Part shown: piece by piece, positions 10,405-62,692 of the stretch
How positions within the stretch are numbered: position 1 is the stretch's first letter
How the letters are laid out: each line of letters opens with the position of its first letter
Origin: a virus
Taxonomy: Duplodnaviria; Heunggongvirae; Uroviricota; Caudoviricetes
Length of the DNA stretch: 64,000 bases
Reading direction: 5' to 3' (one strand)
Virus record (IMG/VR): IMGVR_UViG_3300027708_000034
Span: 18,332 to 82,331 of that record
The notes under the pieces: model-generated
The model's database searches: none
The model's input: only the letters and a program-made list of their open reading frames with translations
What the model was told of the DNA's origin: nothing
Position numbers and translations under genes: made by a program

Positions 10405-11052
10405 GTGAAAAAGCCCAAAATAGCAGTATTCATGCATCAACCCATGTGCTCGGTACAATCGGGCAACGGGATCATTAACGCCCTAAAATCACACTACGAT
10501 TTCAAAATATTCACCAAACATGAATTAGAGTCTGTATTCTTCAAAGATGTTGATATGGTTGCCTTTCCCGGTGGGTTTGGCAATTCTGATAGTTATGACT
10601 ACTTGCTGAAAATAAACGGCGACCCCATAAGGGAATTTGTCGATCGTGGCGGCAAGTATCTAGGCATTTGTATGGGCGCCTATTGGACCGGCAGTCACTA
10701 CTTTGACCTGCTGGATGGCATTGATGCTGTACAATACTACAAACGACCCACGGCCTGTACACATCGCCCACATACAAAGGCCATGCCCGTGACATGGAAT
10801 GGGCGGCCTGAAAAGATGTTCTTCAATGATGGATGCACCTTTGTGGGCAACCCTAAAAAGTATGAAACCATAGCCACTTATTCAAATGGTGATCCAATGG
10901 CCATCATACAAAACGGTATGGGATTAGTCGGCTGTCATCCAGAGAGCGAACAGTTTTGGTATGACAGTTATCGTTGGATGCCACCACATTGGCATGAGCA
11001 CAGACATCACAGCCTATTGCTTAAATTCGTGGACCAGCTGATGCAGCGGTAG
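10405..11052 (+). CDS. Class I glutamine amidotransferase-like protein (GATase1/BPL_N-like)
   Basis: GICMGAYW nucleophile-elbow (G-x-C-x-G) and an upstream AFPGGFG motif. The 3' end overlaps the convergent minus-strand gene by about 30 nt. Confidence 0.5.
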   Translation: MKKPKIAVFMHQPMCSVQSGNGIINALKSHYDFKIFTKHELESVFFKDVDMVAFPGGFGNSDSYDYLLKINGDPIREFVDRGGKYLGICMGAYWTGSHYFDLLDGIDAVQYYKRPTACTHRPHTKAMPVTWNGRPEKMFFNDGCTFVGNPKKYETIATYSNGDPMAIIQNGMGLVGCHPESEQFWYDSYRWMPPHWHEHRHHSLLLKFVDQLMQR

Positions 11053-12727
11053 CAGCTTTAGTACCCATTGGTATTTTAGATCCATCTGGCTTATTTAGAT
11101 TTTGTATACCCGGGGGATCTTGTGTAGTCGGCACAGGTTGCTGTTGTTGTACCGGTGCAGGTTGCTGTTGTACTGGTGCAGGTTGTTGCATAGTTTGCTG
11201 TTGAACAGGTTCTGATTGATTGGGATTCTGTTCTATATAGTTTTCGATATCGGCAATATTCTTTAACAACGGACCCATATTAATTCTATTTCTAACAGCT
11301 TTTGATCTATTATCAAATTGAGATCTAAGATCAATCAATCTAGCTGGATCACCTCTTGATGGGGTGAATTTTTTGGCCAAATCAGTTTTAGGCAATCCGT
11401 ATATAGAAATTACATATCCCTTTTCTTGTCTCAGCTCAACAAACAATTTAAGTTGTTTTAGTGCTTGTTCGAACTCTGTTCCAAAAGACAACTCTGCAAA
11501 GGCTCTTTTACTATCCGGTTCTAAGATAACCATTTCAACGCCTTCTTCTTTTCTGGTCAGATGTGTTAGTAATCCTTGATAAACATTTTCAATAAGGCTG
11601 TCTGGATTGCTTTTTGCCAAAACTTGTAACTGTTTGCTAATGTATTGATAACTATGAGAAAAAGCATTTTGAAAGTTTTGTTCTTTTTTATCATTCCAAG
11701 TAGCAGGTGCTTTGTAAGGAATTTCGTAGAATTTTTTTCTAAGATCTTCTGATAATGGTATTCCTACAATAGAGGTAAAAAAATCATTTAAGTTATCAAA
11801 ATTATGTCCGCCGGCCTGTCCAAACTGTTCAACGCCGCCTGCCTTAACACTTAGCAGTCTCTTTGCGGTTTCTTTACCGTCGATTAAAATCTTCAAGTCT
11901 ACCTTGGTTGTATTTTGATTTTCTTTTTCTGCACCATCGCTGATGACATCGATCTTATTTTCTCTCGGGTCCGTTACTGCTTCGTTAACTGCGCCAGATA
12001 TGCGTTTGGATTTATTAGCATATTCAATTGCACTTTTTAAACGTTGATCAAAAAGTGCAATTTTGTCTTTAGGAACATTATAGTCTTTTAAAGTTTTTCC
12101 TCTACTGTCTTCATTTAACCAAGCATAAAATGCTTTATTATCCATGAAGGGAATACTTACTTTAAACTCTAATATATCTTTTCCTGCTTGAATTTGTATA
12201 CTTCCTTTATTTCTTGCCAACTCTTTGGCTATGCTTATTACCTGCATTTCTGTAATAATTGAACCTTGGTTGGAAAATTTAGCAGCGACAGCACACCCTA
12301 AAATTGCCTCGGATACATTTCCCATGTTAGGATCAATTTCACCTTTGACTTTTTCATCTTTATAAATTTGTTTTGGAATAACATTTTCCCACTCTTCGCC
12401 AGTAGGTTCGAAAGTCTGATCATCAACTTCTGCCACAGTGAAAAACACATTACTGAAGTCTTTAAGTTTTATAGCACGTTTCATTTGTGCGATAACATTC
12501 TCAGGGTTTTGTATAATTCCTAAAAATCTATTCTCAGTTTTTTCTGCTTTTCTTGAACCGGGCAACTTTTCAGAAGTTACAACATTGAAAGCATACACTT
12601 GATTGTTAATTAACCCGTCAAAAAATAAATTATAATACTGAGGTTTAAGCCAATCGTTATCATTGCCTGTCTGGCTCATGAGCTTTTCAAGTAGTATTGA
12701 TTCGGATAAAAATTCTCTTGCTCGCAT
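11021..12727 (-). CDS. Putative head internal protein with T4-like capsid targeting sequence (start taken at MRAREFLSE)
   Basis: The N-terminus MRAREFLSE resembles the T4 internal-protein capsid targeting sequence MKTYQEFIAE, including the L/I-x-E prohead-protease site. C-terminal PAPVQQQ repeats. It is the last gene of the dnaK operon. Confidence 0.5.
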   Translation of the reverse strand: MRAREFLSESILLEKLMSQTGNDNDWLKPQYYNLFFDGLINNQVYAFNVVTSEKLPGSRKAEKTENRFLGIIQNPENVIAQMKRAIKLKDFSNVFFTVAEVDDQTFEPTGEEWENVIPKQIYKDEKVKGEIDPNMGNVSEAILGCAVAAKFSNQGSIITEMQVISIAKELARNKGSIQIQAGKDILEFKVSIPFMDNKAFYAWLNEDSRGKTLKDYNVPKDKIALFDQRLKSAIEYANKSKRISGAVNEAVTDPRENKIDVISDGAEKENQNTTKVDLKILIDGKETAKRLLSVKAGGVEQFGQAGGHNFDNLNDFFTSIVGIPLSEDLRKKFYEIPYKAPATWNDKKEQNFQNAFSHSYQYISKQLQVLAKSNPDSLIENVYQGLLTHLTRKEEGVEMVILEPDSKRAFAELSFGTEFEQALKQLKLFVELRQEKGYVISIYGLPKTDLAKKFTPSRGDPARLIDLRSQFDNRSKAVRNRINMGPLLKNIADIENYIEQNPNQSEPVQQQTMQQPAPVQQQPAPVQQQQPVPTTQDPPGIQNLNKPDGSKIPMGTKAATAASAGPRI

Positions 12728-12737
12728 AGTAGTATAT

Positions 12738-13409
12738 TTATACCACTTCTGGGAACAGGACTTCGTCCACAAACCGCTTCATCTTAGATTCATCTATGCC
12801 CATACTGACCATGCTGCGTATGACATGGGGGTTTTGCTTTTGATAATAGCAATAACGGTTCTGCGCCATATGGAAATCTGCTAGATCCTGCTGCGTATTG
12901 CCTACATTTAATAGATAATAATCCAAGGTTCTTGTGGCCAGCTCGCATAGATTATTCAACTCTTCCTCGGTTGATACATTGCCAGCAGCAACCATGTTGG
13001 GACTAAAAATTTGCTGAGCCCATTCTGGCAGATTCCTAGACTTACCCCACTCGTAAAACAATGCTTCGGTCCCGAACCACTTCATCATAGGATGGGCAGG
13101 ATCTCCTGCTGCGCTGAAGTCGCAGAATGCACCTGTGATTTTATTGGGACCGCAGACTGCATCAAAGCCCCAAATAGGGCTAGGATCGTTAAAGTGTGGA
13201 AATACTGTAGAGTGCAGTATATAGATATTGTGGCTCTCCCTATGGTCTACGATTTCCACATGGGCTCTGCGATATCGCGGGCTGGTCCAAAGGTCATTGT
13301 GCCATTCATAATCACTACTGATCTTGCCGTGTACAGCCTCACCGGTGGCATTGAATCTCGATTTGATATCCTCAGCTAATTTTTCAATTTTGTCCCAAAC
13401 GTTCGCCAT
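12738..13409 (-). CDS. Ferredoxin-dependent bilin reductase (PcyA/PebS/PcyX family)
   Basis: WTSPRYRRAHVEIV...ILHSTVFPHFNDPSPIWGFDAVCGPNKITGAFCDFS aligns with the PcyA core (YQTPQFRKMHLEL...ILHCVMFPEP...[20 protein letters not shown]). Confidence 0.85.
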   Translation of the reverse strand: MANVWDKIEKLAEDIKSRFNATGEAVHGKISSDYEWHNDLWTSPRYRRAHVEIVDHRESHNIYILHSTVFPHFNDPSPIWGFDAVCGPNKITGAFCDFSAAGDPAHPMMKWFGTEALFYEWGKSRNLPEWAQQIFSPNMVAAGNVSTEEELNNLCELATRTLDYYLLNVGNTQQDLADFHMAQNRYCYYQKQNPHVIRSMVSMGIDESKMKRFVDEVLFPEVV

Positions 13410-17038: not shown

Positions 17039-17042
17039 TGTT

Positions 17043-18784: not shown

Positions 18785-18785
18785 A

Positions 18786-19996: not shown

Positions 19997-20023
19997 AGTT
20001 GTTAAATAGTCAAAAGGGACGAT

Positions 20024-31564: not shown

Positions 31565-32422
31565 TTACTTACCAATGTTCATCAGGGTCTTTGTATCGCC
31601 GCCCAACATTGTGCTAGGCAATGCACCGTTCCACTTTTCAATCCACTGCAACTTGACATAGTTCTCACCACCGTTGCTTTGGATAGCAGCGGCTTGGATC
31701 GCGATGGCCTTGGCTTCACCATCTGCTTGTGCGATACGACTTGCAGCCTCAACTTTGATACGCTCCAGGTCTTGTTGAGCCTTGGCAGTTTGTTGCACAG
31801 AGATCACCTTGGCTTCGATGGCCTTTTGATATTCAGGACTGAATCCAAAATTCACCAAACTAATATTGCTCACCGTGATGTTGAACGGAGCCATCTTTTC
31901 CACCAAGTGCTGTAGAATTTCTGCACTGACCAAATCACGTTTGGTAACCAATTCTTCACTGGTGTAGTGACCAGTCACACTCTTGAACGCTTCGTTGATG
32001 CCAGGGCCAAGAACCTTTTCATCCACATTGAGACCGAACTCTTTATAGATATGTGGTACTTTGAGTGGATCTAGACGATAGTTAACCACGATGTCAGTAT
32101 GCACAACCTGCAGGTCTTTGGTACCTGCATTGGCACCTTTTAGTTCCGCCTTCTGTAGACGAACATCCACATCCTTGATTGAACTGATTGGATTCACAAA
32201 GTGAACACCTTCAGTCAAGGGCAAGGGATTGACTTCACCAAGTGTAACCTGTACACCAGTGTGTCCTGCACTGATCACAGTAAATGCTGAAACTCCAATT
32301 GATATGAGAATAATTGCTAGACCTGTAAGTACGCCCAACGCAATCTTTTTGAATTCTGACATAAAAATAATAGCACCTGCTACTAGCAAACCTACGATGA
32401 CACCCACAAGAATTGTGAACAT
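31565..32422 (-). CDS. SPFH/band-7 (prohibitin/HflC-like) membrane protein
   Basis: N-terminal TM helix. SPFH core (QVVHTDIVVNYRLDPLKVPHIYKEFG...) and a C-terminal coiled-coil alanine-rich region. Confidence 0.8.
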   Translation of the reverse strand: MFTILVGVIVGLLVAGAIIFMSEFKKIALGVLTGLAIILISIGVSAFTVISAGHTGVQVTLGEVNPLPLTEGVHFVNPISSIKDVDVRLQKAELKGANAGTKDLQVVHTDIVVNYRLDPLKVPHIYKEFGLNVDEKVLGPGINEAFKSVTGHYTSEELVTKRDLVSAEILQHLVEKMAPFNITVSNISLVNFGFSPEYQKAIEAKVISVQQTAKAQQDLERIKVEAASRIAQADGEAKAIAIQAAAIQSNGGENYVKLQWIEKWNGALPSTMLGGDTKTLMNIGK

Positions 32423-44700: not shown

Positions 44701-45054
44701 CTATCTGGTTACGCTTTTGGCATTATGCGCTGCCATTTGATCCACTGATGGGCCTGTGGGTTGTCCAGCGCCGGGACTTAATTGATCGCTAGGCGTGTCG
44801 GTATTGAGTATGACTGTTCCATCAGGAGTTACTTCAGCCACTACTTTACCTTGTGGATCTATATCTTTGAAAATTGCCTGTAGTGCCTGTTGGCTTTCGG
44901 GGCCGCCGTTGCCAATGGCATAGTCGAAATCTGAAAATGCATGTTGGACTAGACCAAAGGGCAGCTCTGAATCGCGCCCCTGTTCGTTGGCCAAGTCCTG
45001 TAGCACTTTGAGTACAGACCTAGCACTACCTAGGTCTATTTCGAAGAATCTCAT
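44701..45054 (-). CDS. Hypothetical protein (117 aa)
   Basis: ORF only. Confidence 0.45.
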   Translation of the reverse strand: MRFFEIDLGSARSVLKVLQDLANEQGRDSELPFGLVQHAFSDFDYAIGNGGPESQQALQAIFKDIDPQGKVVAEVTPDGTVILNTDTPSDQLSPGAGQPTGPSVDQMAAHNAKSVTR

Positions 45055-46484
45055 TATGATGCGAGTTTGCTCATGATACTGTGTGACTCAGCTAGTCTGC
45101 GGGCAAACTTGCTTTCACGCATTTCACGTCCGCTAGCCTCTGGTCCACCAGCAGCAGCATCGCTAGCACCAAATTCGTCACCCCCCATCTCTGGATTCAT
45201 GGCATCTGGCGGAGCTGTATCCATACCTGGCTCCATGCCTGCATCCATGCCTGGCTCCATACCCATACCTTCCGGTGGTGCTGAACCCGAAGCTAATTGT
45301 GCAACTGCATTGCTGATAGATTCACGTTGTTGTGTCAGTGTTTCAAGTGTAGCACTCAATGCTGGACCGACTGCTTGTTTGAATACTTCAGCTTCTGCAG
45401 GTCCAAACTCAGCGCGGATCTCATCGCTTAATTCAATGATGGCTTTAGTTTGATATTGACCAACACGTTGCATCCAGCTGGTAAAGTCATTGACCATATC
45501 GCCTGCTGCTGTAATAGTCTTGGCTTTACCTTCTTCATCTTCTTGTAGCAAATAGCCGATGCTTTCGTTTACAAAACGTACATTGTGCTTGAATGCATTC
45601 ACAGACTCTTTGACTTTCTTTCTAGCACGTAGTTTGGCAAAATCGCTTTTCTCTAGTTTGCCGTCGTGGTCAACATCAAGTTTGCCTTGCTTGCCTTTTA
45701 GGCCTTCCATAGTACCCATGCACTCTTTGCAATCGCAGTCCTTAGGATGTGCCTTGCCTTCTCCAACTTTCTTATTTTTTGGCTTGTCTTCAGTGCCATT
45801 GTCAAATGTACTGGACTTGCGAGTATACTGTGTACCGGTAGTAGTTTTTTTCTTATCAAACTTACCTGTTGTGGAGTTCTTTTCTTTTGCATGATCGGAC
45901 TTGACTTTGTTCATCATATCATCCCAACTCTCATCCATCTTACCATGGACCGGACATTTGTCTTCACCTTTTGTAGAGCAGCAGCACTTCTCGCTCATTG
46001 CTTCTTTAACTGCTGATTCTTTCTTAGCAAACGGATTTACACCTTTCTTTGGACCTGCTTTTTTGTCAGCAACAGCTTTTTTCATTGGCTCTTTTTTGTC
46101 GCCATCTTTGTCCATGTCAAGGAAATCTGGTTTGCTGCCCTTAGCAGCAATTTTTGTTTTTGGAGGGCGAGTACCTTTTTTGGCCTCGCTCAGTTGGTCC
46201 ATTTTGTCACGTAGTTTTTTGATGTCTTCGCCTAGCATTTCTTTTATCCTTATGTTGAGCAATTCTAACATTGCTTTGTCTTTTTGGTAAGTCTCGTTGG
46301 TTAACAAATCATTAACGCCAGACGACCCTTCTTGTTGAAAGATACGAGTACGTAGTTTGTTACGAATATCTTCTAGTTGCTCACGATCGTACTTTTCTAA
46401 ATGGACTCGAGTACCAAATTGCTTACGCATATTTTCTAAAAGATATGCGCTGGTTATCTTGGGGCTGAAGTCTATGGTTTTCAT
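45054..46484 (-). CDS. Highly charged Lys/Glu-rich coiled protein with Met/Pro/Gly-rich C-terminal tail (start taken at ATG MKTIDF; the track's TTG start at 46496 is less likely)
   Basis: N-terminus MKTIDFSPKITSAYLLE↓N (the MKT start and L-x-E resemble T4 prohead-protease substrates). About 40% K/E/D. Possibly a scaffold or internal protein. Confidence 0.45.
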   Translation of the reverse strand: MKTIDFSPKITSAYLLENMRKQFGTRVHLEKYDREQLEDIRNKLRTRIFQQEGSSGVNDLLTNETYQKDKAMLELLNIRIKEMLGEDIKKLRDKMDQLSEAKKGTRPPKTKIAAKGSKPDFLDMDKDGDKKEPMKKAVADKKAGPKKGVNPFAKKESAVKEAMSEKCCCSTKGEDKCPVHGKMDESWDDMMNKVKSDHAKEKNSTTGKFDKKKTTTGTQYTRKSSTFDNGTEDKPKNKKVGEGKAHPKDCDCKECMGTMEGLKGKQGKLDVDHDGKLEKSDFAKLRARKKVKESVNAFKHNVRFVNESIGYLLQEDEEGKAKTITAAGDMVNDFTSWMQRVGQYQTKAIIELSDEIRAEFGPAEAEVFKQAVGPALSATLETLTQQRESISNAVAQLASGSAPPEGMGMEPGMDAGMEPGMDTAPPDAMNPEMGGDEFGASDAAAGGPEASGREMRESKFARRLAESHSIMSKLAS

Positions 46485-46510: not shown

Positions 46511-46518
46511 TATTTATA
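46511..46518 (-). promoter_or_regulatory. T4-type late promoter motif TATAAATA (minus strand), 26 nt upstream of the MKTIDF start
   Basis: Plus tatttata = minus TATAAATA in the 17-nt intergenic region. Confidence 0.4.
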
Positions 46519-46978
46519 TTAATTTAGTCAGTTTCTCAAAACTCTTCATGATCTCTTGTTTGTGGGCGGCCTTCTTATGCAGGGCGATTTTGTGCTTTTC
46601 CAAGTTGATATCGAAGTAATCTAAGTTTTTGTGGTCCCGTTCGATGGCTCGCTTGTGTAACTGTTCCTTAAAATCAGCGTATCCATAGCTTTTATCCATA
46701 GCGATCAATTGAGAATCTGTATGCTTGCCCAATGCTAGACTGTTGGCAGTAATCAGTGCAGTCTGTGGCAAGTTGATTCCTGATACTATGGCTTCTTTAG
46801 TATGATCTAATATAGAGTAAGATCCATCTGGATTCCTAACCACTGTATACCAACCAAATTTGATAGTGCCGTTTTTGCTTTTGATAGGAACTACAAATCC
46901 CTTGGCCCTTAGTTGACTTTTGACTTCTCTATCGAGCTGGGATAATTTTTTTAGTAGGTCTTCAGTTAGATTTTTCAT
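46514..46978 (-). CDS. Hypothetical protein (154 aa)
   Basis: ORF only. Confidence 0.45.
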   Translation of the reverse strand: MKNLTEDLLKKLSQLDREVKSQLRAKGFVVPIKSKNGTIKFGWYTVVRNPDGSYSILDHTKEAIVSGINLPQTALITANSLALGKHTDSQLIAMDKSYGYADFKEQLHKRAIERDHKNLDYFDINLEKHKIALHKKAAHKQEIMKSFEKLTKLI

Positions 46979-47171
46979 GTAAGTTTTTGATCAGCGTACT
47001 GCTATCATTACTTAGTGAAAATACGCCCTTGCGCATTAGATTTTGAGCAACCCAACGATCGTGATCATCTAGGCTGGTGATCCTAACATCGTGCTCATGA
47101 TTTTCTAAGAAACGATGCTCTTCATTAGACAGAGCGATATCTACCTTAGATAGTAGTTGATATATTTTCAT
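46962..47171 (-). CDS. Small hypothetical protein
   Basis: ORF with overlaps on both sides. Confidence 0.35.
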   Translation of the reverse strand: MKIYQLLSKVDIALSNEEHRFLENHEHDVRITSLDDHDRWVAQNLMRKGVFSLSNDSSTLIKNLHEKSN

Positions 47172-48076
47172 GCTGATGATATGGTGTTAGGAGTTGTTCC
47201 GGCAGCGCTGGGCGGTTTCTGTGATAGATTCGTTGTTTTGCCCTGTGATCGCTGTAGTAGCTGTTGTTGTCGCTGTTGACTAGCTTGATTGATCTGACGT
47301 GTATCAAGCTGATTTTTTGGAGCAGGTGCTGCCGGATTGTAGTAAGGTGATGGAGCCTGGAATTCATCGTTTTTGTAATCAGACCATTTTGGTTCAGAAC
47401 CGGCTGCTGCACCCATGCCTGCTGCTTTGAGTTTTGCTTCGACATCTTTTTTAACAGCAGCCGCGTTTGCAAGGTTGGGTACTTGATACGAAGATACATT
47501 ATTTGGTGTCGATCCAGTAGTAGTCTGTTGTTGCTGTTGTTGTATCTGAGATTGCTTTTTTGCTCCGGTGCTGATGGCCTGTTTGATTTGATTGGCTGTA
47601 CTAGGATCCATTAATGCATCAGACAAGCCAGGTAATAGTGCCTGTAAATCTTTTTGTGCCTGTGGATTCATGGGCTGTCCCGGAACTTGAGTTGCTAGTG
47701 TCTTGCTTAATCTATTAGAATCGACATTGCCGCCGCCCGCTTGCTGTACAGCACTTTTTATATTGTCTACACCAGACTTGATGTTATTGGTTACATTAGA
47801 GGCTGCTTGTGGTGCGGCCTGTCCAATCTTCTGCACACCCTGCGCTACAGCACTGCCGACTTTCTGTACACCCTGTGCAAGTCCGCGACCCACTGCCTGT
47901 GCTCCTGTGAGTGCTGCATCGCCCGCTGCTAATGCACCTCGACCAATTGCCTGTCCGGCTGCTAGAGCACCTCGACCAATCATACCAGCAACTGGTGCAG
48001 CAGCGGCTGCTAGTGCAGGTAAAAACTCATCGAGTTTTTGGTCAGACTTCTCGGCTATGAATTCCCTGGCGCGCAT
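47168..48076 (-). CDS. Putative head internal protein with T4-like capsid targeting sequence (MRAREFIAE) and Ala/Gly/Gln-rich repeats
   Basis: N-terminus MRAREFIAEKSDQKLDEF matches the T4 CTS MKTYQEFIAE. Repeated GRGALAAGQAIGRGALAAG and AQGVQKVG/AQGVQKIG units. Confidence 0.5.
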   Translation of the reverse strand: MRAREFIAEKSDQKLDEFLPALAAAAAPVAGMIGRGALAAGQAIGRGALAAGDAALTGAQAVGRGLAQGVQKVGSAVAQGVQKIGQAAPQAASNVTNNIKSGVDNIKSAVQQAGGGNVDSNRLSKTLATQVPGQPMNPQAQKDLQALLPGLSDALMDPSTANQIKQAISTGAKKQSQIQQQQQQTTTGSTPNNVSSYQVPNLANAAAVKKDVEAKLKAAGMGAAAGSEPKWSDYKNDEFQAPSPYYNPAAPAPKNQLDTRQINQASQQRQQQLLQRSQGKTTNLSQKPPSAAGTTPNTISSA

Positions 48077-48079
48077 ATA

Positions 48080-48319
48080 TTAGTGTGCTTTAGACAGCAG
48101 AACAAATAGCACGCTGAGCACACCAGTGACGACTGTGCCAGCAGTGCCTATGATGACTTTGGTCATGCTGCTGTGGCCATCTTCGATTAACTTTTTCAAG
48201 TCACCAAACTTGCCTTCGATGGCAGTGAGTCTATCGTCAAGACTCTGATAGCGTTGAGCGCATAAATCAACGTGTGCTTCTAAATTTGTTTTTTCAATCT
48301 CAATCGGTCCAGTGGACAT
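48080..48319 (-). CDS. Small C-terminally membrane-anchored protein
   Basis: A single C-terminal TM helix (VIIGTAGTVVTGVLSVLFVLLS). Confidence 0.45.
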   Translation of the reverse strand: MSTGPIEIEKTNLEAHVDLCAQRYQSLDDRLTAIEGKFGDLKKLIEDGHSSMTKVIIGTAGTVVTGVLSVLFVLLSKAH

Positions 48320-48351: not shown

Positions 48352-48780
48352 TTAATTTGTGCCTAGATGAGCCGTGATGATTGTATTTTTTGCAATACTA
48401 TCATTACATGAGAATATTGCCTTACCAATATTTATACTCTCCGTGAGATTTTTAATCAAAGGAACACCGTCTAAATCGTCAAATAATAGGCCAATTTCGT
48501 TATTATTGTCATCTAAATAGACGCTTTCTCTGTCAGGATTGAATCGAAATGTCCATACCCTATGACGGCCAGCATACATGGTGCCGAAGCCCATGTCTTT
48601 TATATCCACTTCTTCTACAGTGGGCGCATGTTCATAGGACACGACACTACGCATTTCCGCGCACTGTAATAATGTTATAAAATTCCTATGCTGATCCAAT
48701 TCAAGCTGAGTACCTTGATTAGGTCTTATGACACGAGTGTGTGTGATATCTATCAAAGTGTTTATTTCTATTTGAACCAT
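48352..48780 (-). CDS. Hypothetical protein (start taken at ATG MVQIEINTL)
   Basis: ORF. A late-promoter motif lies 18 nt upstream. Confidence 0.45.
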   Translation of the reverse strand: MVQIEINTLIDITHTRVIRPNQGTQLELDQHRNFITLLQCAEMRSVVSYEHAPTVEEVDIKDMGFGTMYAGRHRVWTFRFNPDRESVYLDDNNNEIGLLFDDLDGVPLIKNLTESINIGKAIFSCNDSIAKNTIITAHLGTN

Positions 48781-49389: not shown

Positions 49390-49716
49390 TTATTCGTCGT
49401 CTTTTAAGTCACCTTCGATTATGGTAAGACGGCTGGCAGTTTCTTTACTGTCACGTAGTCTACGTATGCTACGGGTAAATTTACTGGCATCACCACCTCT
49501 AATGCTGTTGACTAGTCTACGCTCTAGCTCATAGGCCTTTTCTGGATTGTAGGTTTCTTTGATTAATTTCAGCAGATTGATGGCACTATCGATCACATGC
49601 GTGGCACGGCTTTCGATGATAGCTTCGCTGTCTTTCCTATGCGAAATGTCATTCAGTTCTTCTAGTAAACTGCGAGTGGTACGTTTCAAGATAGTGTCCT
49701 TTGTGGTATTTAGCAT
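49390..49716 (-). CDS. Hypothetical protein (108 aa)
   Basis: ORF. The last minus-strand gene before a divergent control region. Confidence 0.45.
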   Translation of the reverse strand: MLNTTKDTILKRTTRSLLEELNDISHRKDSEAIIESRATHVIDSAINLLKLIKETYNPEKAYELERRLVNSIRGGDASKFTRSIRRLRDSKETASRLTIIEGDLKDDE

Positions 49717-52128: not shown

Positions 52129-55100
52129 TTATGCTTGAGCTTCGCCCCAACGCAGCACCAAGTTGGCATTAACCGCACTACCCTGTGTAACGTACACGTT
52201 GATCATCAACACGTCCGGACCGTTGGGATATGCACCCCTGCCGCCGATTGGTGTGTTGGTCAATTCTTTCAATGGTGTTAAATCTAATCCGTCTTTTGAT
52301 GATGGACTTGATATGAATGAGAAAATCTGTTCCCCAGGATTTGCATACTGATTTCTACCAAAGTTGAAATTACCATTAGCTACAGAGATCAACGGCTGAC
52401 TTACTGTGATGGTGCTAGCACCGATGCTAGTGACCACCGTACCGCCCTGTAAAAAGTTACCGTTATATACCGCATCACCGATGGCCACGCTGGCAGTGCT
52501 GGCCACACCTACTACAGACTGATTAGGAAATCCGCCAGTGGCACTCAATGTACCGGTGCTGACATTGTCAAATGTGATGGAATTACCCGAGGCCACCTGA
52601 CTGAAACTAGGTTGTCCGCTACTGGTCAAGTTAGTCCAGGTAATGTTGTTGGTGTTTGATGGATAGTTGCTGGGATTCAAGATACCCTCGATGATCAAGG
52701 CCTGACCCGCAGCACTAGTGCCGGCTGTAATTTCAATACCCTGTAGCAGCAGTTGAGCGCGATTGATTAATTCCCTAACTCCTAGATCGCCTGTGATAGC
52801 ATTACTAACGCTAGGTGACAATCGAATGGCAAATGCAGTGGTCTTTCTAATCTGGGCTGCAATATTGGTAGCAGCATAGTTAAAGATGTATCCTCGATCA
52901 TTGTCAAATCCACCATCAGTTAGGAATGCACTTCCCCAATGACTGATCACTGGACTTGCTGTCTGACCGACTACAATAACACCGGTTCCAGATGTATGCG
53001 CAAATGCGCCGCTGCCACTGAATGTTCTATTCTGTCCAGCTACCCATTGGGTGAAACTTGATCCCCTAGCACCCAATGTCAATTGATTAGTAGCAGTGGT
53101 TTTGGCAGTGTAAGGAATGATTTCATTATCGATCATGATCGTGCCGGAATTGGCAAAATATGTGACGTCAGTCAAGGTCATAACTGTGCCTGCACTTGAA
53201 ATATCAGTGGCCAAGGCTGACCTAGCGCCCTCATTGGTAACTTCGTATCTGACCGGCATGTTACCTGTGCGCATATACGCTTCATTATTGACGTTGGAGT
53301 TTTTGATCCTATGCATGGTTAGATAATTTCCATCAGGGCCCCTCAACATATAATCGATAAATCCTGCACCATACCAAGTCCATTGCAATCCGATCATTTG
53401 CATTTTATTAGGTATTAAATTATATCCGCTGGGATTGAACACGCTGTTGGTTCCATCACATCTATCATTATTCCATTGACTTTGCGGGATGATGATATCA
53501 CGAGTTTTTACTGCCTTGACTCCGGTGGAAGCAATCACACCTCGATAGTCTGGAGTTATGGTAATACTGGTCTGGCTATTTACTGCGCTGACCACATGGG
53601 TCATACCCCTGATCACTATCCTATCCCCGGCAATTAGCTGGTCGCGGAATCTAGTATTTGTGCCAGTGATTAAATTAGAATCCGGAATCACTGAAATTGT
53701 TCCAGCAAGTTGCAAGGTACTGGTCCTGAGACCCAAAGCCATGACCTGGCCGTCGTATTGGATAAACATACCGTTTTGTTCATCAAATGTGCCAGCTCTT
53801 ACTGTGGATCCGCTCCAAGTTACTAGCGAAACTAAACAAGGAGTATCCAATATTGCCGTTGTGGTGTCTAAAGTATTGGTTGCGAAAAATAAGAAAGTTC
53901 TCTCGTCAACGATACCGGCCACAGTATAGGTACCGTTATATCCACCACTAGTCACACCGGATATCTGTATCACTGCACTAACCTGCAGGCCGTGATCCAC
54001 ATCATCTACTACCACAGTCACAGTGGAGCCTATAGTGGTGCCCGATGCAGTTAAACTTCTTATGTCATAATTGGGGGCAAACAATCCGCCGGTATTGTAA
54101 TTGATGGCCTTACCACTTTGATAACGTATGTATTTTTTACTCATACGCACGGATTGAGCACCGTGTTGTGGGCCGCCGTTGCCTAGAGACACACCACCGT
54201 CATATGGTCTATGAACATAAAAACTATCTGACCTTACATATATGGTACCCGTCACAGTGCCAGTGATCGACCCAACACTTCTAGCCATGTAGACCAAAGA
54301 GGTTCCAGTGGTCACTGTGGATATATAGAATGGGCCTTGACACAGATTGTTATTGTTGCTGCCGTTGTCACTGCCGATGGCAACATATATACTATTTCCC
54401 GGAACTAGTCCGTGATTGGCGGCGAAACTTACAGTAACGGTGCCAGTGGTGCTGGCACCACTTCCAATCACTGTAAATGTTGGAGTTCCTATAGAAGCGC
54501 CGGTGTAAAAACCACCTTTCCTGATCTGTGTGTAGGTGCTGCTGATAGTTTCACCTATGGCAGATCCCACACGGGCCTTGGCATAATAGTTAAAAATATT
54601 AGTTCCAGTGACAGCATTTATCACGAAGGATCCCTCTGCGCGGGCATAACCAGATGCCGAAGACAGCAATGCCTTCACAGTGATGGGAGTACTGGTACTT
54701 AAATTATGCGGAGAAGAACATGTCACAGTGATGAGGCTTTCAGCATCAACAGATCCGCCGTTGGAATAATCTGTAGTTATCGAACTGATATTACTCAAAT
54801 CAGTGCCGGGGATTTCATATATGCCCGGATATCCTCGAACCATGCTGAGAGTCTGCCATTTGGTTGGTTGCAGTCCGTATTCAAAGTCAGCGTCCAACAT
54901 GCTTTGCGGTGCAGCCATACGTGTACGTTCAAAAGCATCAGTGCCCAGAGACCAGGGACGAGTGACAATTTCATTTCGTTCTACGAATATCTGTAGGGAA
55001 TCAGTGGAACTCATGGCACTGGTATCGTAGCCTAATCTAAAAGTAGTCACACCATCAGTATTTTGTAGAGCTTGGGGAAAACTGGCAGTATTGGCCCTGC

Positions 55101-55278
55101 TAAAAGTCACTGTTGTGTTATTATAGGCGATATCTGCAAAATTATAGATTATGATATTTTTTGTGATATTGGTAACAATCAGCAATTGGTTAAGATCCCA
55201 TTTGCCGGGTACACTTATAGTCCCGTTGGTGGCTGTTCCGGGTGCGAACACATAAGTTCTTAATAGTTGCTTAGCCAT
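52129..55278 (-). CDS. Large virion structural protein (1049 aa; baseplate/fiber-associated)
   Basis: Very long T/S/G/N-rich ORF with beta-rich repeats, located between fiber genes. Confidence 0.55.
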   Translation of the reverse strand: MAKQLLRTYVFAPGTATNGTISVPGKWDLNQLLIVTNITKNIIIYNFADIAYNNTTVTFSRANTASFPQALQNTDGVTTFRLGYDTSAMSSTDSLQIFVERNEIVTRPWSLGTDAFERTRMAAPQSMLDADFEYGLQPTKWQTLSMVRGYPGIYEIPGTDLSNISSITTDYSNGGSVDAESLITVTCSSPHNLSTSTPITVKALLSSASGYARAEGSFVINAVTGTNIFNYYAKARVGSAIGETISSTYTQIRKGGFYTGASIGTPTFTVIGSGASTTGTVTVSFAANHGLVPGNSIYVAIGSDNGSNNNNLCQGPFYISTVTTGTSLVYMARSVGSITGTVTGTIYVRSDSFYVHRPYDGGVSLGNGGPQHGAQSVRMSKKYIRYQSGKAINYNTGGLFAPNYDIRSLTASGTTIGSTVTVVVDDVDHGLQVSAVIQISGVTSGGYNGTYTVAGIVDERTFLFFATNTLDTTTAILDTPCLVSLVTWSGSTVRAGTFDEQNGMFIQYDGQVMALGLRTSTLQLAGTISVIPDSNLITGTNTRFRDQLIAGDRIVIRGMTHVVSAVNSQTSITITPDYRGVIASTGVKAVKTRDIIIPQSQWNNDRCDGTNSVFNPSGYNLIPNKMQMIGLQWTWYGAGFIDYMLRGPDGNYLTMHRIKNSNVNNEAYMRTGNMPVRYEVTNEGARSALATDISSAGTVMTLTDVTYFANSGTIMIDNEIIPYTAKTTATNQLTLGARGSSFTQWVAGQNRTFSGSGAFAHTSGTGVIVVGQTASPVISHWGSAFLTDGGFDNDRGYIFNYAATNIAAQIRKTTAFAIRLSPSVSNAITGDLGVRELINRAQLLLQGIEITAGTSAAGQALIIEGILNPSNYPSNTNNITWTNLTSSGQPSFSQVASGNSITFDNVSTGTLSATGGFPNQSVVGVASTASVAIGDAVYNGNFLQGGTVVTSIGASTITVSQPLISVANGNFNFGRNQYANPGEQIFSFISSPSSKDGLDLTPLKELTNTPIGGRGAYPNGPDVLMINVYVTQGSAVNANLVLRWGEAQA

Positions 55279-57700: not shown

Positions 57701-58627
57701 TTAGTAGTTTTTCTTAATGACAAATCTACCGCCGCTGCCACTTCCGGAACTGGTTCCTCCAGTTCCTGCTGTACCTCTATCAGCATCGGCATTATTACCC
57801 GCAACACTGCCGCTACCGGCAGTGGTGGTGCCACTGGTAATGCCCGCGCCGCCGATGTAACCAGATCCACCTCCGGCACCCGCCCCTGCGGTGTCACCGC
57901 CACCTCCACCACCGCCAAAATATCCGCCACCTCCACCACCGCCGCCTGCGTCGCCGGAACAAAGGATACCGCCGCCGCCATTACCAAATCCCAATCCGCC
58001 GGCGGCCGAAACCCCGCCACCACCTGATCCATTACCTCCATTACGACCGCTTCCAGCAACTCCTGTTCTTCTAGATCCAACCCCGCCGGCACCCGCTGCA
58101 GATTGTGTTCCGCCATAACCTCCGATGCTGCCACTACAGGTACCGTTAACACCTGTGGCACCACCACCGGCACCACCGCCGCGTGTGCCGCTGCTGTCGC
58201 CAGATCCTCCACCACCACCGGCTACAATAATTGCTGTTGATCCAACAGCGGTCTGCATGCCTGTACCAGCGCCACCGCCTGATCCAACACGGCTTGCGGC
58301 GGTTCCAGTACCGCCGCCACCTACTATAATCTGATAATTGGTTCCAGCACTAAATGTAAAGTTACCGGTTGAATTTCCACCACCACCGCCGGCGGCACCG
58401 CTGGCTGATCCACCGCCGCCGCCCCATAGCTTGAGTGTCGTAGGAACACTATTACCGGTGGCACTTATAGTATAGGTCGTATTGGCAGTGGTTATTACTA
58501 GATCGCCATCTCCTGCCAAATCCCAAGTTGTTTTCCCAGAAACTGCTGGAGAAATCGTGAGTGTAAGAGGAAATGCTCCCATGGTTAAGGTTCCTCCTAT
58601 TCTAACGCCGCTGCCGCCGATGATCAT
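57701..58627 (-). CDS. Glycine-rich protein, MIIGG family member (308 aa)
   Basis: N-terminus MIIGGSGVRIGG. More than 45% Gly with GGGGG runs. Confidence 0.55.
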   Translation of the reverse strand: MIIGGSGVRIGGTLTMGAFPLTLTISPAVSGKTTWDLAGDGDLVITTANTTYTISATGNSVPTTLKLWGGGGGSASGAAGGGGGNSTGNFTFSAGTNYQIIVGGGGTGTAASRVGSGGGAGTGMQTAVGSTAIIVAGGGGGSGDSSGTRGGGAGGGATGVNGTCSGSIGGYGGTQSAAGAGGVGSRRTGVAGSGRNGGNGSGGGGVSAAGGLGFGNGGGGILCSGDAGGGGGGGGYFGGGGGGGDTAGAGAGGGSGYIGGAGITSGTTTAGSGSVAGNNADADRGTAGTGGTSSGSGSGGRFVIKKNY

Positions 58628-58641
58628 AATATATATATTTC

Positions 58642-59547
58642 CTAGAATATTATAGAACCTGATGCAGTGAATATGTAAAATATGGTACTGCTTGTGACAT
58701 ATTGATTGGCATTTGTAGATATTGCTGCTGCGTATGTTATTGGATAACGCACTATAACCACACCACTACCGCCAGTGGCTCCAAGATTGCCGCCACCTGC
58801 TCCACCACCGGTATATGGTTGACCGTTGCCGCCTGCTAAACTCGTACCAGATCCGCCGGATGACACACCATTTCCTCCACCACCCAAAGCACCAGTTCCG
58901 CCAGTGCCGTTGGCCATGCCACCGCCACCACCTGCAAAGTAAACTTGGCCACCACTAATTTCCCCAACACCTGCTGCTGTTGCGGTTGGTACACAAATAA
59001 ATGTAGTGGCCACGCCAGCACCGCCAGCACCGCCAGTATTTGCTCCACTAGAGCCAGCGATACCAATTCCACCCACTCCTCCTGCTCCACCACCGCCACC
59101 GCCTGCACTATTGGCAGTGATACAGCTAGTCCTAGCTCGACCACCTGCAAATCCTTGTCCCGCGATACCAGCACCGCCCGCAGTACTGCTACGGCCGCCG
59201 CCCCCGCCACCAGAGCCGCCTGCAAGCCCTGCAGTATTGAACACGCCTCCACGTCCACCGCCAGTGGCTGTTACTGCATCGATAGAAGATGCGCCGCCGC
59301 AGGTCTTTACACCGCCTGGTCCAACAACAATGCTGATTGGCGTGCCTTGGACTACTGCTAAAGTTCCAGTCAATACTCCGCCAGCGCCACCAGCTGCAAT
59401 ACCTGCATTTCCATCACCGGATTGGGGTGACCCACCGCCGCCTGCCACCAAAAAATACTGGATCGAAGGCGGTGGATTTCGTATGATAAAATCTGATATG
59501 CTAAAAGGGCCACCCCCTATTGTAACGCCGCCACCGCCGATGATCAT
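58642..59547 (-). CDS. Glycine-rich protein, MIIGG family member (301 aa)
   Basis: N-terminus MIIGGGGVTIGG. C-terminus FYIFTASGSIIF shared with paralogs. Confidence 0.55.
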   Translation of the reverse strand: MIIGGGGVTIGGGPFSISDFIIRNPPPSIQYFLVAGGGGSPQSGDGNAGIAAGGAGGVLTGTLAVVQGTPISIVVGPGGVKTCGGASSIDAVTATGGGRGGVFNTAGLAGGSGGGGGGRSSTAGGAGIAGQGFAGGRARTSCITANSAGGGGGGAGGVGGIGIAGSSGANTGGAGGAGVATTFICVPTATAAGVGEISGGQVYFAGGGGGMANGTGGTGALGGGGNGVSSGGSGTSLAGGNGQPYTGGGAGGGNLGATGGSGVVIVRYPITYAAAISTNANQYVTSSTIFYIFTASGSIIF

Positions 59548-59575
59548 AATGTATATTTCCTATATTAATAATTTT

Positions 59576-61729
59576 CTAACCACCGATTAGTTGTGCTGTC
59601 GGTGGTGTGAATGCGGCTGTATATCTAGCATAGCCTTTGGTTACTCGGTAGTCATCCATATATCCATTAAAGAAAAAGGTACCGCTTAGGTATGCTACTC
59701 TACCAATGTTATAGGGAATAGTTGCATCAGTGTATATAGCACTCGATGATGTAAAAGTCCTATCCACCACACCATTTACAAAACTTCTGAATGTGCTGCC
59801 ACTGCGGGTAACAGCAATATGATACCAAGTATTTGCGGACAATAGTATGTTGCCCCTATTGCCGACAGTGTCGCATTCCAAAATGTCCCAGCTGGTGCCG
59901 TTGCTACTAGCCCACATACATACTTGCTGTCCCCATATTTCCAATCCAAATCCCTTATAGTGTGAGGCAGTGTCAGTTCCTGGGCCTGATACGTATTTTC
60001 TAGCACTAGTATCTCCAATGTATACCCATGTTTCTATTGTAAAGTCAGCTTTTGAGAAAAGGAATGAGTGTGTGTTTGGTAAAAAACAATAATCAGTTGA
60101 TCCATTGAACTTCAAGGATGCTGTACCGTATTTGACCTGGGTAGTACTGGCCTGAGCAGAACCCACAGTGATCACATCGTTCATGGCTGCTGAATCATAG
60201 ATGCCAGCGTTGGCAAAATTGAGTAACAATTGAGTATTAGTCACTGTTGTTAGTGGAGTAGTCGGAGGGGTAAAGTTACTGGTATAGACTGCCGTGCCTT
60301 TGACGATGCGAAGATCGCTAAGGTATCCATTGTATTGAAAATTGACTGTACCTACATCGTCGTACCCAATTCTCAGAGTCTGCGCAGCCGAACTAGGAAG
60401 TGTTATGGTAGTTGGGCCCGCTACTGAAACTCCGTTGACATATATCCTTGCGCTGCCGGCATTACACACCACTGCTATATGATACCAATTGTTCAATGCT
60501 ATAGTACCGGATGGAGCTCCAATGAGGGTTCCGGGGCTACCATATGGTCTATACCATCCAAAACTTCCGTTGTTGTCGTACCCTATATCCCAGCCAGCAG
60601 CATCACCGTTGGCGCCTGCCATTAGTAATCGGCATTGATTTCCCGATGTAGGAGTAGCCATAGAGTACATCCACCATTCTATGGTCCATGTACTGCTAGA
60701 TAAGTCAAACACACTAGATGACGGAAGTGTTAATTTATCTCCACTGCCATTGAAGTACGCACTAGTACCAATTGTGCCGGCAGTATATTCAGTTTGGCCA
60801 TTTCCAAAAGGACCAAAACGTTGGATACTTGGATTGCTAACTGTGGTTACAGCAAAGGCATTGCTACTTCTATCGATGATTCTATTATCTTGGAACAACA
60901 ATAACTGTACACCCGAGGCTCCTTGACTAGTTGTTGTTACGGCAGCAGTTGGTGGTGTGAATATGGTAGTTCCAGCAGTGGTACTGGTAGTAGAGTACGA
61001 GGTAGGTACAGCGCCGATACACATCCTGAAATTGCTTATATACATTTCAGTTAAATCTCCGCCCAGTTGTGAGTTGGTTCCAAAGCTGGTATTTGAAGTT
61101 CCGTTAATGTTGGTTGAGTTTGCAGTGGCTTCGCGCAGTATTCCATTTACAAATAATCTAAGATATCCGTTTTGTCTAGATGACACTACATGTATCCATT
61201 GTCGAACATGCCCTGAACCGTTGGTGCCAGTGGTATCGTATGTTGCACTATTATATGTTTGACTATTGCCGTCGACTAGTGTTTGTATCAAGGTATCAAC
61301 AGTACCAAATGCCAATTCAACACCTATGCTGCCTGCTAGACCGTAGTTACTCTGATGACTCCAGACTCGGGTATAATTCGCCGGCTGTTTTGCTATGTAT
61401 AACCAGCACTCGATTGAAAAATCTCCAGTACCAATTGCTCTGGTAGCGCTGTATGGCAAATAAGCATAGCTGCTGGTACCGTTGGTATACAAACTCCAAT
61501 TATTACCATACGGGCTAAATGAACCCTGTGTTGTTGTACCAGTACGAGTGATAGAGAAATTGTTAGAGGAAGAATCTAAGAAAGTATTATTCTGTGCAGC
61601 GTTGGCACCATCTCCATAAAATAGTGCAGTTACATAATTGAATTGAGCGTCAGTTGGCGTTGGTACAACAGCAGGTCCTAATATTTGTACCCTACCTTGT
61701 ATTACAATTCCACTACCGGTGATAATCAT
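59576..61729 (-). CDS. Structural protein (717 aa) sharing the MIITGSGI N-terminus of the Gly-rich family but with a large non-Gly-rich beta-rich body
   Basis: N-terminus MIITGSGIVIQG. T/S/N/G-rich lectin/fiber-like body. Confidence 0.55.
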   Translation of the reverse strand: MIITGSGIVIQGRVQILGPAVVPTPTDAQFNYVTALFYGDGANAAQNNTFLDSSSNNFSITRTGTTTQGSFSPYGNNWSLYTNGTSSYAYLPYSATRAIGTGDFSIECWLYIAKQPANYTRVWSHQSNYGLAGSIGVELAFGTVDTLIQTLVDGNSQTYNSATYDTTGTNGSGHVRQWIHVVSSRQNGYLRLFVNGILREATANSTNINGTSNTSFGTNSQLGGDLTEMYISNFRMCIGAVPTSYSTTSTTAGTTIFTPPTAAVTTTSQGASGVQLLLFQDNRIIDRSSNAFAVTTVSNPSIQRFGPFGNGQTEYTAGTIGTSAYFNGSGDKLTLPSSSVFDLSSSTWTIEWWMYSMATPTSGNQCRLLMAGANGDAAGWDIGYDNNGSFGWYRPYGSPGTLIGAPSGTIALNNWYHIAVVCNAGSARIYVNGVSVAGPTTITLPSSAAQTLRIGYDDVGTVNFQYNGYLSDLRIVKGTAVYTSNFTPPTTPLTTVTNTQLLLNFANAGIYDSAAMNDVITVGSAQASTTQVKYGTASLKFNGSTDYCFLPNTHSFLFSKADFTIETWVYIGDTSARKYVSGPGTDTASHYKGFGLEIWGQQVCMWASSNGTSWDILECDTVGNRGNILLSANTWYHIAVTRSGSTFRSFVNGVVDRTFTSSSAIYTDATIPYNIGRVAYLSGTFFFNGYMDDYRVTKGYARYTAAFTPPTAQLIGG

Positions 61730-61746
61730 TTGTATTTCCCTTATTT

Positions 61747-62649
61747 TTAGAAACTTATATATCCCGATGCAGTGAATATATAAATTCTATTATTGCCCGA
61801 CAACACTGGCGTTATAGTCGTGCCCGTAATTGTCGCACTGGTATAAGAAGATGGGTAACGGATGATAACGATCCCAGAGCCGCCTGCGCCGCCAGTGTTG
61901 TTAAACTCAGAGCCAGCACCGCCACCTCCACCACTATTGGCAGTTGCGTTTGATCCGCTGAGGTTAGTATTGGCACCTGCGCCGCCGCCGCCACAGCCGC
62001 CAGTTCCAGGTCTCGATCCGTTGTGCGTAGCGCCTCCACCACCACCTGCGTAGTAGGTTGCTGTGCCAGAAATAGAAGACAAAATTCCAATACCACCATT
62101 ACCTCTTATCGCAGTGTTTGCGTCGTTATATGAAACACCTGCCCCGCCTGCGCCGCCGCCGCCGCCACCCACGTCTAGATTGTTATTACTATCTGATCCG
62201 CCAGTGCCACCAGCAAATCCTTGGCCACAGGTTCCGCCGCCACCCGCAGCTCCAGCACTGGCGCCAACACCGCCGCCGCCACCAGACCCCCCAGCAACAC
62301 CAGCTAGTCCAACACTCGACCTATAAGAGCCGCCGCCGCCGCCACCTGCTGAAGTGATTGTAGAAAAAGCTGAAGGATTGCCACTAGATCCAGCAGGTCT
62401 ACAACCGTTGCCGCCTGAAGCAGTCCCTGGCCCACCAGGACCAATAGTCACTGTGTAACTGATACCTGCTGATACAGCAAAACCAACGGCAGTTCTAGCA
62501 CCACCAGCGCCGCCGCCGCCACCTGACTGCGTACCGCCGCCGCCGCCTCCGGCAACTACTAGATATTCTACCGTAGGTGGGGCAGTTGGAGCAGATGTAT
62601 CTCCTATTTGAATAAACCCACCCATCGTAATTCCAGCACCGATAATCAT
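61747..62649 (-). CDS. Glycine-rich protein, MIIGG family member (300 aa)
   Basis: N-terminus MIIGAGITMGG. C-terminus RIYIFTASGYISF. Confidence 0.55.
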   Translation of the reverse strand: MIIGAGITMGGFIQIGDTSAPTAPPTVEYLVVAGGGGGGTQSGGGGGAGGARTAVGFAVSAGISYTVTIGPGGPGTASGGNGCRPAGSSGNPSAFSTITSAGGGGGGSYRSSVGLAGVAGGSGGGGGVGASAGAAGGGGTCGQGFAGGTGGSDSNNNLDVGGGGGGAGGAGVSYNDANTAIRGNGGIGILSSISGTATYYAGGGGGATHNGSRPGTGGCGGGGAGANTNLSGSNATANSGGGGGAGSEFNNTGGAGGSGIVIIRYPSSYTSATITGTTITPVLSGNNRIYIFTASGYISF

Positions 62650-62692
62650 TGTGTCAACTGTCCTTTGTACTATTTACTCACATGCAGATCTG

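Follow-up and report, generated by a model that had tools for sequence, protein, structure and literature searches.

Proteins carried inside a phage capsid act ahead of any phage gene expression, and among those of T4 are inhibitors of host restriction. Such capsid proteins are difficult to detect, as their mature parts evolve fast and lack recognizable domains. In the T4 internal protein (IP) IPIII, the N-terminal 10 residues are sufficient for packaging; targeting depends on residues 4 and 7 and cleavage on residues 8 and 10, and an Asp at position 10 stops cleavage but not targeting (PMC9026906). T4 proteins with such a capsid targeting sequence (CTS) are ejected along with the DNA (PMC9026906, PMC3012670), and Alt, an enzyme carried in the T4 head, is cut at both ends (PMC9026906). 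In the giant phages phiKZ and SPN3US, many head-internal proteins are reported to have N-terminal propeptides that are removed by the prohead protease and to be ejected into the host (PMC5694885, PMC7411985, PMC10052503). Here we analyzed a stretch of 64,000 nt (hereafter the window) from a virus of the Caudoviricetes, positions 18,332 to 82,331 of IMG/VR record IMGVR_UViG_3300027708_000034. Two of its proteins, p302 and p568, both encoded on the minus strand, start with MRAREFIAE and MRAREFLSE, respectively. We consider it likely that this N-terminal tag, MRAREF[I/L]xE, is a T4-type capsid-targeting propeptide in its local form, a new sequence variant with an unusually wide range of cargo. 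The literature that we searched contained no paper on this motif, nor on a CTS outside the T-even group.

The shared N-terminus of p302 and p568

Gene p302 lies at 47168..48076 (minus strand), with its tag in codons 1-9 at 48050..48076, and gene p568 lies at 11021..12727 (minus strand), with its tag in codons 1-9 at 12701..12727. The T4 proteins IPII and IPIII start with MKTYQEFIAE and IPI starts with MKTFKEFTSTTTPVSTITE (all taken from NC_000866). The initial annotation of this DNA had claimed that p302 and p568 begin with near-copies of the T4 sequence. This was confirmed when the open reading frames (ORFs), their starts and the T4 sequences were all read. The tag has M, a basic residue and then EF-I-A-E in common with MKTYQEFIAE, but lacks one of the residues that precede the Glu in T4; a peptide of this length does not allow a statistical test of homology. 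A survey of N-termini across the predicted proteins, also proposed in the initial annotation, was run on the ORFs of the window, and only p302 and p568 fitted the pattern M[KR]x(1-4)[EDQ]F[ILVM]xE. Six of eight identical residues at positions 2-9 were seen in three of 13,203 ORF pairs, and the two other pairs were adjacent paralogues. BLASTP revealed no similarity between p302 and p568 outside residues 1-9. By these comparisons, the match between the two N-termini exceeds chance.

Portability of the tag

We ran a degenerate DNA pattern encoding M-R-A-[RS]-E-F-[ILFM]-x-E on IMG/VR. It occurred in at least 120 stretches (at least 132 matches), compared with 8 stretches in the whole collection for a control with permuted codons. 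Among the matches listed, 124 of 132 start an ORF of at least 60 amino acids. When the same pattern was run on prokaryote genomes (596 Gb), 25 of the 120 matches listed were at ORF starts, and several of these 25 look like phage contigs binned into metagenome-assembled genomes. Most residues of the tag are fixed by the pattern itself. Unbiased evidence of conservation is therefore provided by the families of p568 and p302 and by the positional homologues that precede the portal gene, all described below.

After removal of the tag, 126 proteins from the IMG/VR matches listed fell into 33 unrelated cargo groups. The cargo types include GNAT acetyltransferases, a LysM+SLT wall hydrolase, DUF6321 and DUF6934. 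In Pelagibacter podophages, DUF6321 is untagged and encoded beside the capsid gene, and in cyanomyoviruses it is the C-terminal domain of proteins of 396-457 amino acids. In the tagged lineage it is a stand-alone protein, and MRAHEFI is joined exactly at the domain boundary, which clearly illustrates that the tag is attached as a module. Judged from these sequences, the tag is a short, N-terminal, portable module that is conserved at the protein level on unrelated proteins of uncultured T4-like phages.

A shared gene start could also be a feature of the nucleic acid, such as a translation-initiation or regulatory cassette or a recombination joint, with the peptide itself having no function. 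Tandem arrangement of tagged genes is frequent (as many as four in locus L048), and Repoila et al. are said to have described in 1994 that the IP loci of T-even phages are recombination-prone cassettes. However, the two DNA copies in the window differ at 8 of 27 bases, 6 of these differences being synonymous, and the DNA upstream of them does not align. Moreover, among 128 tagged genes from the IMG/VR matches listed, the Arg, Ala, Glu, Phe and Ile residues are retained with free variation at the synonymous positions of their codons, which indicates that selection acts on the tag as protein. An explanation at the nucleic-acid level is thus very improbable.

The largest tagged family comprised 82 of the 126 proteins from the matches listed. 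Its members have about 125-130 residues, and many of those seen end with ...F(K/R)GYPR. They are often encoded as two tandem paralogues near gp4 and gp17, in loci such as L036 (366-755) and L038 (1280-2034). This family, with members of 129 residues, was absent from all isolates. Another tagged gene, L063 413-1297, encodes a LysM-SLT transglycosylase in which a Tat-type signal, SRRGFLRGLGAAG, stands directly behind MRASEFIAE; it scored 22.1 bits against a cut-off of 22.7. Removal of the tag would place this near-canonical Tat signal at the new N-terminus.

Association with T4-type head genes

T4-type genes were found within about 7 kb at 73 of the 120 tagged loci listed from IMG/VR. Gene by gene, the counts among these 120 loci were 39 for gp17, 14 for gp4, 11 each for gp43 and gp18, 6 for UvsX, 2 for gp23 and 1 for gp21. 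For a typical tagged locus, the nearest relatives of its gp17 are in jumbo phages such as PA5oct (51%), Phosso and Atu_ph07. In locus L076, a tagged ORF of 67 amino acids lies directly behind gp21-gp22-gp23. With the gp21 of this locus as bait, we collected 80 gp21 loci, many of them from the same lake metagenomes as the window. The head module in these loci has the order: tagged Gly/Ala-rich protein (150-385 amino acids), a protein of about 800 amino acids, portal, an 81-amino-acid protein, an acidic protein of about 340 amino acids, gp21, gp22 and gp23.

Thirty-five of the gp21 loci had at least 5 kb of sequence 5′ of the portal gene. In 25 of them, an ORF starting with M[KR]h-x-[EDQT]-h-h was present there, 2.5-5.5 kb upstream of the portal, compared with a background of 2 out of 350 other ORFs in the same loci. 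Sixteen of these 25 ORFs also had [LI][DE]E in residues 10-30, as p302 does (for example, MRINELLAEQEQLDEL and MKITELLSEEQLDEL). In a profile comparison of p302 with the portal-upstream genes, only the first 16-18 residues aligned. The architecture of these genes is that of p302, which is thus the local version of a positionally conserved class of head-module genes. In L302 (8554-8802) and L352 (8532-8777), the 81-amino-acid ORF that separates the portal from the acidic protein upstream of gp21 starts with MILREFIYF, another EF-I N-terminus.

The neighborhood of head genes also suits a somewhat different explanation, which overlaps with capsid targeting. The tag might be a signal for incorporation into the virion, and the proteins that bear it might be structural parts of the head or neck, such as core or portal-associated components, that are not injected. 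The p302-type gene is fixed in position within the head module, the largest tagged family is encoded near gp4 and gp17, and p476, a third protein of the window that is discussed below, is a very widespread and conserved long-helix protein. On the other hand, many of the cargos are enzymes without an obvious structural role (GNAT, SLT and nuclease folds), and T4 proteins with a CTS leave the head with the DNA (PMC9026906, PMC3012670). We regard a purely structural role as unlikely.

The p568 and p302 families

The protein p568 has 568 amino acids, starting with MRAREFLSESILLEKLM, and consists of the tag, a candidate core of the restriction-endonuclease-like (PD-(D/E)xK) type and a disordered Pro/Gln-rich tail. 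The mechanically defined ORF reaches a TTG at 12772; the public gene calls (P0022) give the 568-residue form. We collected 118 full-length homologues by similarity over the whole length, down to about 45% identity. Their N-terminus, with counts per 118 in brackets, reads M-R(106)-A(94)-[RK]-E(107)-F(100)-[LI](115)-x-E(108)-S-[KR]-L-x-E(113)-G-L-M(118). When the alignment is made from the Glu, F6, [LI]7, the variable residue 8 and E9 mirror F7, I8, A9 and E10 of T4. The second conserved L-x-E is in codons 12-14 (12686..12694, minus strand). Just behind it, Met17 (12677-12679) is invariant in all 118 homologues; it could be an internal start that gives an untagged, non-packaged isoform of p568.

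The AlphaFold model of p568 had a predicted local distance difference test (pLDDT) score of 80, with residues 2-12 of the tag disordered (pLDDT below 50) and the Pro/Gln-rich tail disordered as well. The candidate PD-(D/E)xK site is in residues 260-283 (11879..11950, minus strand), VISD264G ... KVD277-L-K279 ... D283G, where D264, D277 and D283 are invariant and K279 is nearly so. Strands were predicted at 258-264 and 277-282, and D264 and D277-L-K279 are on adjacent predicted strands. In this model, the invariant D264 together with D277-L-K279 might tentatively fit the active site of a PD-(D/E)xK nuclease. A Foldseek search of the model against the PDB gave no match, nor did sequence profiles of the PDB; Pfam and PHROGs gave nothing useful. 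In tblastn against cultured phages, there was only a weak, untagged match in ACG-2014f.

The T4 late-promoter consensus, TATAAATA, has 10 copies in the window compared with 4.2 expected, and 10 copies were reached in none of 100 shuffles. Several copies are just 5′ of gene starts. One of them, at 12735..12742 (minus strand), is 7 nt 5′ of the ATG of p568. From the position of p568 in an operon of chaperone and bilin genes, the initial annotation had suggested an early effector; because of this late-promoter motif directly upstream of the gene, the idea was not supported.

The protein p302 has 302 amino acids and starts with MRAREFIAEKSDQKLDEF at an ATG that is also used in the public gene call P0001. 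It is basic (isoelectric point 9.85) and rich in Ala, Gly and Gln. Among its 21 metagenomic homologues, MRAxEFI is invariant (M1, R2, A3, E5, F6 and I7), and residue 9 is Asp in 11, Glu in 7 and another residue in 3. Two [LI]xE sites, IAE and LDE, occur in p302 in total, both within the first 17 residues. The second, L-D-E in codons 15-17 (48026..48034, minus strand), is followed by a conserved FLPALAAAAAP; L15, D16, E17, L19, P20, A21, L22 and A24 are invariant in the family, including the L-P-A-L-A-A stretch. As residue 9 is mostly Asp while L15-D16-E17 is invariant, the cut conserved among these homologues more probably follows E17. The initial annotation had taken FIAE and FLSE to be the cleavage sites of a gp21 protease. 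For FLSE this agrees with the conservation of [LI]7 and E9 in the p568 family, whereas FIAE is probably not the conserved cut of the p302 family.

Residues 30-117 of p302 (47726..47989, minus strand) form eight Gly/Ala-rich repeats of 11 residues, with an identity autocorrelation of 0.37 at lag 11 and 0.28 at lag 22 compared with about 0.1 elsewhere, and the tail is Gln-rich. The p302 of the window is about 100 residues longer than most of its homologues, which have about 195. At the end of its extra C-terminal part (47168-47500), the C-terminal motif G-(S/T)-T-P-N-x-(I/V)-S-S occurs for a second time, suggesting that the C-terminal third was duplicated internally or extended. No match of p302 was found in Pfam, in PHROGs, in PDB sequence profiles or by tblastn against cultured phages. 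An ORF of 79 amino acids with a hydrophobic C-terminal segment (48080..48319, minus strand) ends 3 nt before the start of p302, and the two are probably co-transcribed. No late-promoter motif belongs to p302 itself; the nearest copy of TATAAATA on its 5′ side, at 48429..48436 (minus strand), is about 110 nt upstream of the 79-amino-acid ORF.

The gene neighborhood of p568 brings in another destination. The tag could be a real portable N-terminal signal that does not lead to the capsid: a timing or degradation tag read by the phage Hsp70, Hsp20, ClpS or ClpX-like ATPase, or a signal for export via CsgG/CsgF or Tat. Genes for ClpS, Hsp20 and Hsp70 are directly 5′ of p568 in a conserved synteny, and CsgF and CsgG are encoded behind the p568 homologue of a 192.8-kb relative (L136). 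In addition, the near-threshold Tat signal of the tagged LysM-SLT protein directly follows the tag, and a cut of p302 at LDE would expose an N-terminal Phe, which is a ClpS-type N-degron by the established N-end rule. However, the pelagimyophage HTVC008M has CsgF, CsgG and Hsp20 but no tagged ORF, and on this ground we rejected secretion through CsgG. The genes with which tagged genes cluster are those of head and packaging (gp4, gp17, portal and gp21-23) rather than those of chaperones. Lacking a hydrophobic core, the tag is itself no Sec or Tat signal. A gp21-type cut accounts for its conserved [LI]-x-E ending, whereas a role with chaperones, Clp proteins or export does not. A destination outside the capsid therefore seems improbable, about as much so as a purely structural role.

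The protein p476

The initial annotation listed p476 (476 amino acids; 45054..46484, minus strand; the public gene call P0311 uses the same start) as a possible third tagged protein. Its N-terminus, MKTIDFSPKITSAYLLE (codons 1-17, 46434..46484, minus strand), is different and does not carry the same tag. It resembles the longer propeptide of T4 IPI (MKTFKEF...ITE), with which it shares MKTxxF...LxE, and M1, K2, T3, F6, L15 and E17 are invariant among p476 homologues. A copy of TATAAATA (46511..46518, minus strand) is 26 nt 5′ of the p476 ATG.

The protein is highly charged and very widespread in this phage group, and its family is very large, with 1107 clusters at 50% identity and more than 2191 matches at 1e-20. 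Conserved, helical N- and C-terminal domains flank a variable, charged middle, and L464-x-E466 near the C-terminus is invariant. AlphaFold2 predicted helices at 12-104, 279-399 and 450-475 and a disordered middle; the confidence of the model was too low for a fold search. There was a weak match to phrog_14154, annotated as 'virion structural protein', while Pfam gave nothing useful, PDB sequence profiles no match and tblastn against cultured phages no hit. The Lys-rich middle (45600-46150) contains EF-hand-like DxDxDG loops (DMDKDGDKKE and DVDHDGKLEKSD) and a Cys-rich CCCSTKGEDKCPVHG motif, and their copy number varies among homologues. Identity with the scaffold protein gp22 was rejected (hhalign probability below 1% against both S-CAM1 gp22 and the gp22-like protein of L076), as was homology with the 800-residue or acidic proteins of the head module, again by hhalign. 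From its sequence features, p476 is probably a processed internal or core component of the head with an IPI-like propeptide, a case separate from the tagged cargo. Two small ORFs of 154 and 69 amino acids lie between p302 and p476 (46514..47171, minus strand). A 213.8-kb relative (L139) has called genes of 157 and 71 amino acids directly 5′ of its p476 homologue, which match these ORFs by position and size only.

A proposed mechanism of capsid loading

If the tag is a capsid-targeting propeptide, events might proceed as follows. Both p302 and p568 would be made late in infection, the latter probably from a late promoter of its own. The tag would bind the scaffolding core of the assembling prohead, by analogy with T4, and the proteins would be enclosed. 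A gp21-type protease would then remove the tag at E9, at the second site (E17 in p302 and E14 in p568) or at both. The mature proteins would remain with the DNA and may exit with it at infection. Mature p568 would be a ready-made protein of nuclease fold. Mature p302 would be basic and composed of 11-residue repeats; if the cut is made at LDE, it would start with the hydrophobic Ala-rich segment.

Several observations weigh against this interpretation. Homology of the tag with the T4 sequence is not proven, because the tag is one residue shorter. The residue behind E9 is not small, unlike that at the T4 IP sites, and the Asp that is most frequent at position 9 of the p302 family stops cutting in T4. 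A nuclease packaged beside the genome needs some protection, and none was identified. The motif TATAAATA was not enriched 5′ of the IMG/VR tagged genes (1 of 128, among the matches listed) and was rejected as a general feature of tagged genes. The tag was not seen in the cultured phages examined, namely S-CAM1, HTVC008M and the 50 kb of PA5oct that was scanned (100-150 kb). Finally, neither gp21 nor gp22 or gp23 was found in the 64-kb window or the 10-kb flanks covered; the flanks at the window edges have fibre and glycosyltransferase genes only, and the collected gp21 loci share no DNA with the window. We thus infer the protease of this genome from relatives only. The initial annotation had placed the phage in the T4 morphogenetic paradigm and expected a gp21-like protease elsewhere in the genome. 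The T4-like character of the window and the co-occurrence of the tag with T4-type gp21, gp22, gp23, gp20, gp17, gp18 and gp4 on related contigs speak for the first claim, and the protease was found on related tagged contigs but not in the window or the 10-kb flanks covered.

Capsid targeting remains the reading that we prefer for the tag. A broader claim, to which we give somewhat less than even credence, is that MRAxEF[IL]xE and its MRI/MKI variants mark a large, unrecognized set of capsid-loaded and host-injected proteins in uncultured T4-type phages, including those with jumbo genomes of 330-355 kb. If so, the cargo would comprise nuclease-fold proteins such as p568, GNAT acetyltransferases and a wall hydrolase that exposes a Tat signal once the tag is cut, and the repertoire of injected proteins of uncultured phages could be read from N-terminal sequence. 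If the tag works as the T4 signal does, it would be a sequence-only handle for listing packaged, possibly injected, proteins in thousands of uncultured T4-type phages of lakes and oceans. It would also provide candidate effectors (nuclease-fold, acetyltransferase and wall-hydrolase proteins), and those who engineer T4-type capsids to carry cargo would gain a second natural targeting peptide.

Genomic context of the window

The window looks T4-like, judging from its late-promoter motifs, from rIIB on a syntenic relative and from a virion protein of 1049 amino acids (52129-55278) that has 52% identity to a protein of the cyanomyoviruses S-CAM1 and S-CAM3. With S-CAM1 and HTVC008M, the window has tail-fibre and baseplate-like proteins, NrdA/NrdB, an exonuclease, Hsp20 and glutaredoxin in common. 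A megablast search of the region against cultured phages gave no nucleotide match. The contigs came from freshwater lake metagenomes.

Upstream of p568, a tight minus-strand block (12738-16693) encodes Hsp70/DnaK (14792-16693), Hsp20 (14270-14704), ClpS (13923-14225), heme oxygenase (13384-13926) and a ferredoxin-dependent bilin reductase (12738-13409). Together with a ClpX-like AAA+ protein that has a ClpX zinc finger (21785-23020, minus strand), Hsp70, Hsp20 and ClpS make a full proteostasis set in a freshwater T4-like phage. L136 retains the order Hsp20-ClpS-heme oxygenase-bilin reductase-p568; T4 rIIB is present there too and was not detectable within the window. Around its p568 homologue (6899-20701), L136 has a ketoacyl synthase, two tandem bilin reductases, the curli-secretion genes CsgF/CsgG, a FecR-like protein and a CHASE2-guanylate cyclase, and HTVC008M likewise encodes CsgF/G/B and a cyclase. 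In a published survey, hemO-pcyA/X contigs of lakes and oceans were assigned to pelagimyophages (PMC11480375).

Most of a run of ORFs at 57701-63808 (minus strand) start with MII(G/T)G. Gly_rich_2 domains are present at 58642-59547, 61747-62649 and 62693-63808, and a 717-amino-acid protein inside the run (59576-61729, minus strand) has three lectin-like Laminin_G_3 domains. This large fibre-like gene array extends another 10 kb in contig L127. A protein of 1226 amino acids at 3011-6691, encoded on the plus strand opposite to its neighbors, combines collagen triple-helix repeats with a Peptidase_S74 intramolecular chaperone domain at its C-terminus and is probably a fibre. Host-like genes include a GT4 glycosyltransferase and a RimK-like ATP-grasp ligase within 7690-10359, a porin-like protein (27370-28260) and an SPFH/Band 7 protein (31565-32422), all on the minus strand; the ORF at 9547-10359 (minus strand) was judged metallophosphoesterase-like by eye only. 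Two adjacent small ORFs, 30476-30736 and 30733-30996 (minus strand), have the common N-terminus MNERIK(E/Q)L and are probably tandem paralogues. A protein of 108 amino acids (49390-49716, minus strand) matched phrog_11854, 'virion structural protein', and resembles, by eye only, PA5oct gp259 of the same annotation; if real, this likeness would link the window to jumbo phages with a T4 core.

Comparison with known systems

Encapsulin cargo-loading peptides are short and portable and bring unrelated enzymes into a shell of the HK97 fold, and in this respect the tag is like them. They are, however, usually C-terminal and not removed, and their compartment is non-viral. The propeptides of the giant phages are long, are not known to share a short tag and have the cleavage motif (S/A/G)-x-E; these phages are not of the T4 type. 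In T4, the prohead protease trims the head proteins Alt, gp22, gp67, gp68, gp23 and gp24 at [LI]-x-E, and p476 similarly has L-x-E near both ends (L15-x-E17 and L464-x-E466), but it has no sequence similarity to Alt or to other gp21-processed head proteins.

The closest counterpart of the tag is the T4 CTS, represented by MKTYQEFIAE of IPII and IPIII and by the 19-residue propeptide of IPI. Both are at the extreme N-terminus, have about 9-19 residues, with a basic residue at position 2 and an E-F-[IL]-x-E core, and end in the gp21 motif [LI]-x-E. Both are borne, in T4-type phages, by unrelated and fast-evolving cargo that is often encoded in tandem, and the conserved and variable positions of the tag match the mapped targeting and processing residues of T4. 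The tag differs in its consensus, MRA[RKS]EF[IL]xE (with variants MRI/MKI-x-[ED]-L-[IL]-x-E), which is one residue shorter, and often has a second conserved [LI]-x-E 5-8 residues further on. The residue after its putative cut site is not small, and its range of cargo is far wider, including enzymes of 300-570 amino acids. Finally, the lineages that bear the tag are uncultured ones of freshwater and the sea, and their gp17 is only about 33% identical to that of a cyanophage.

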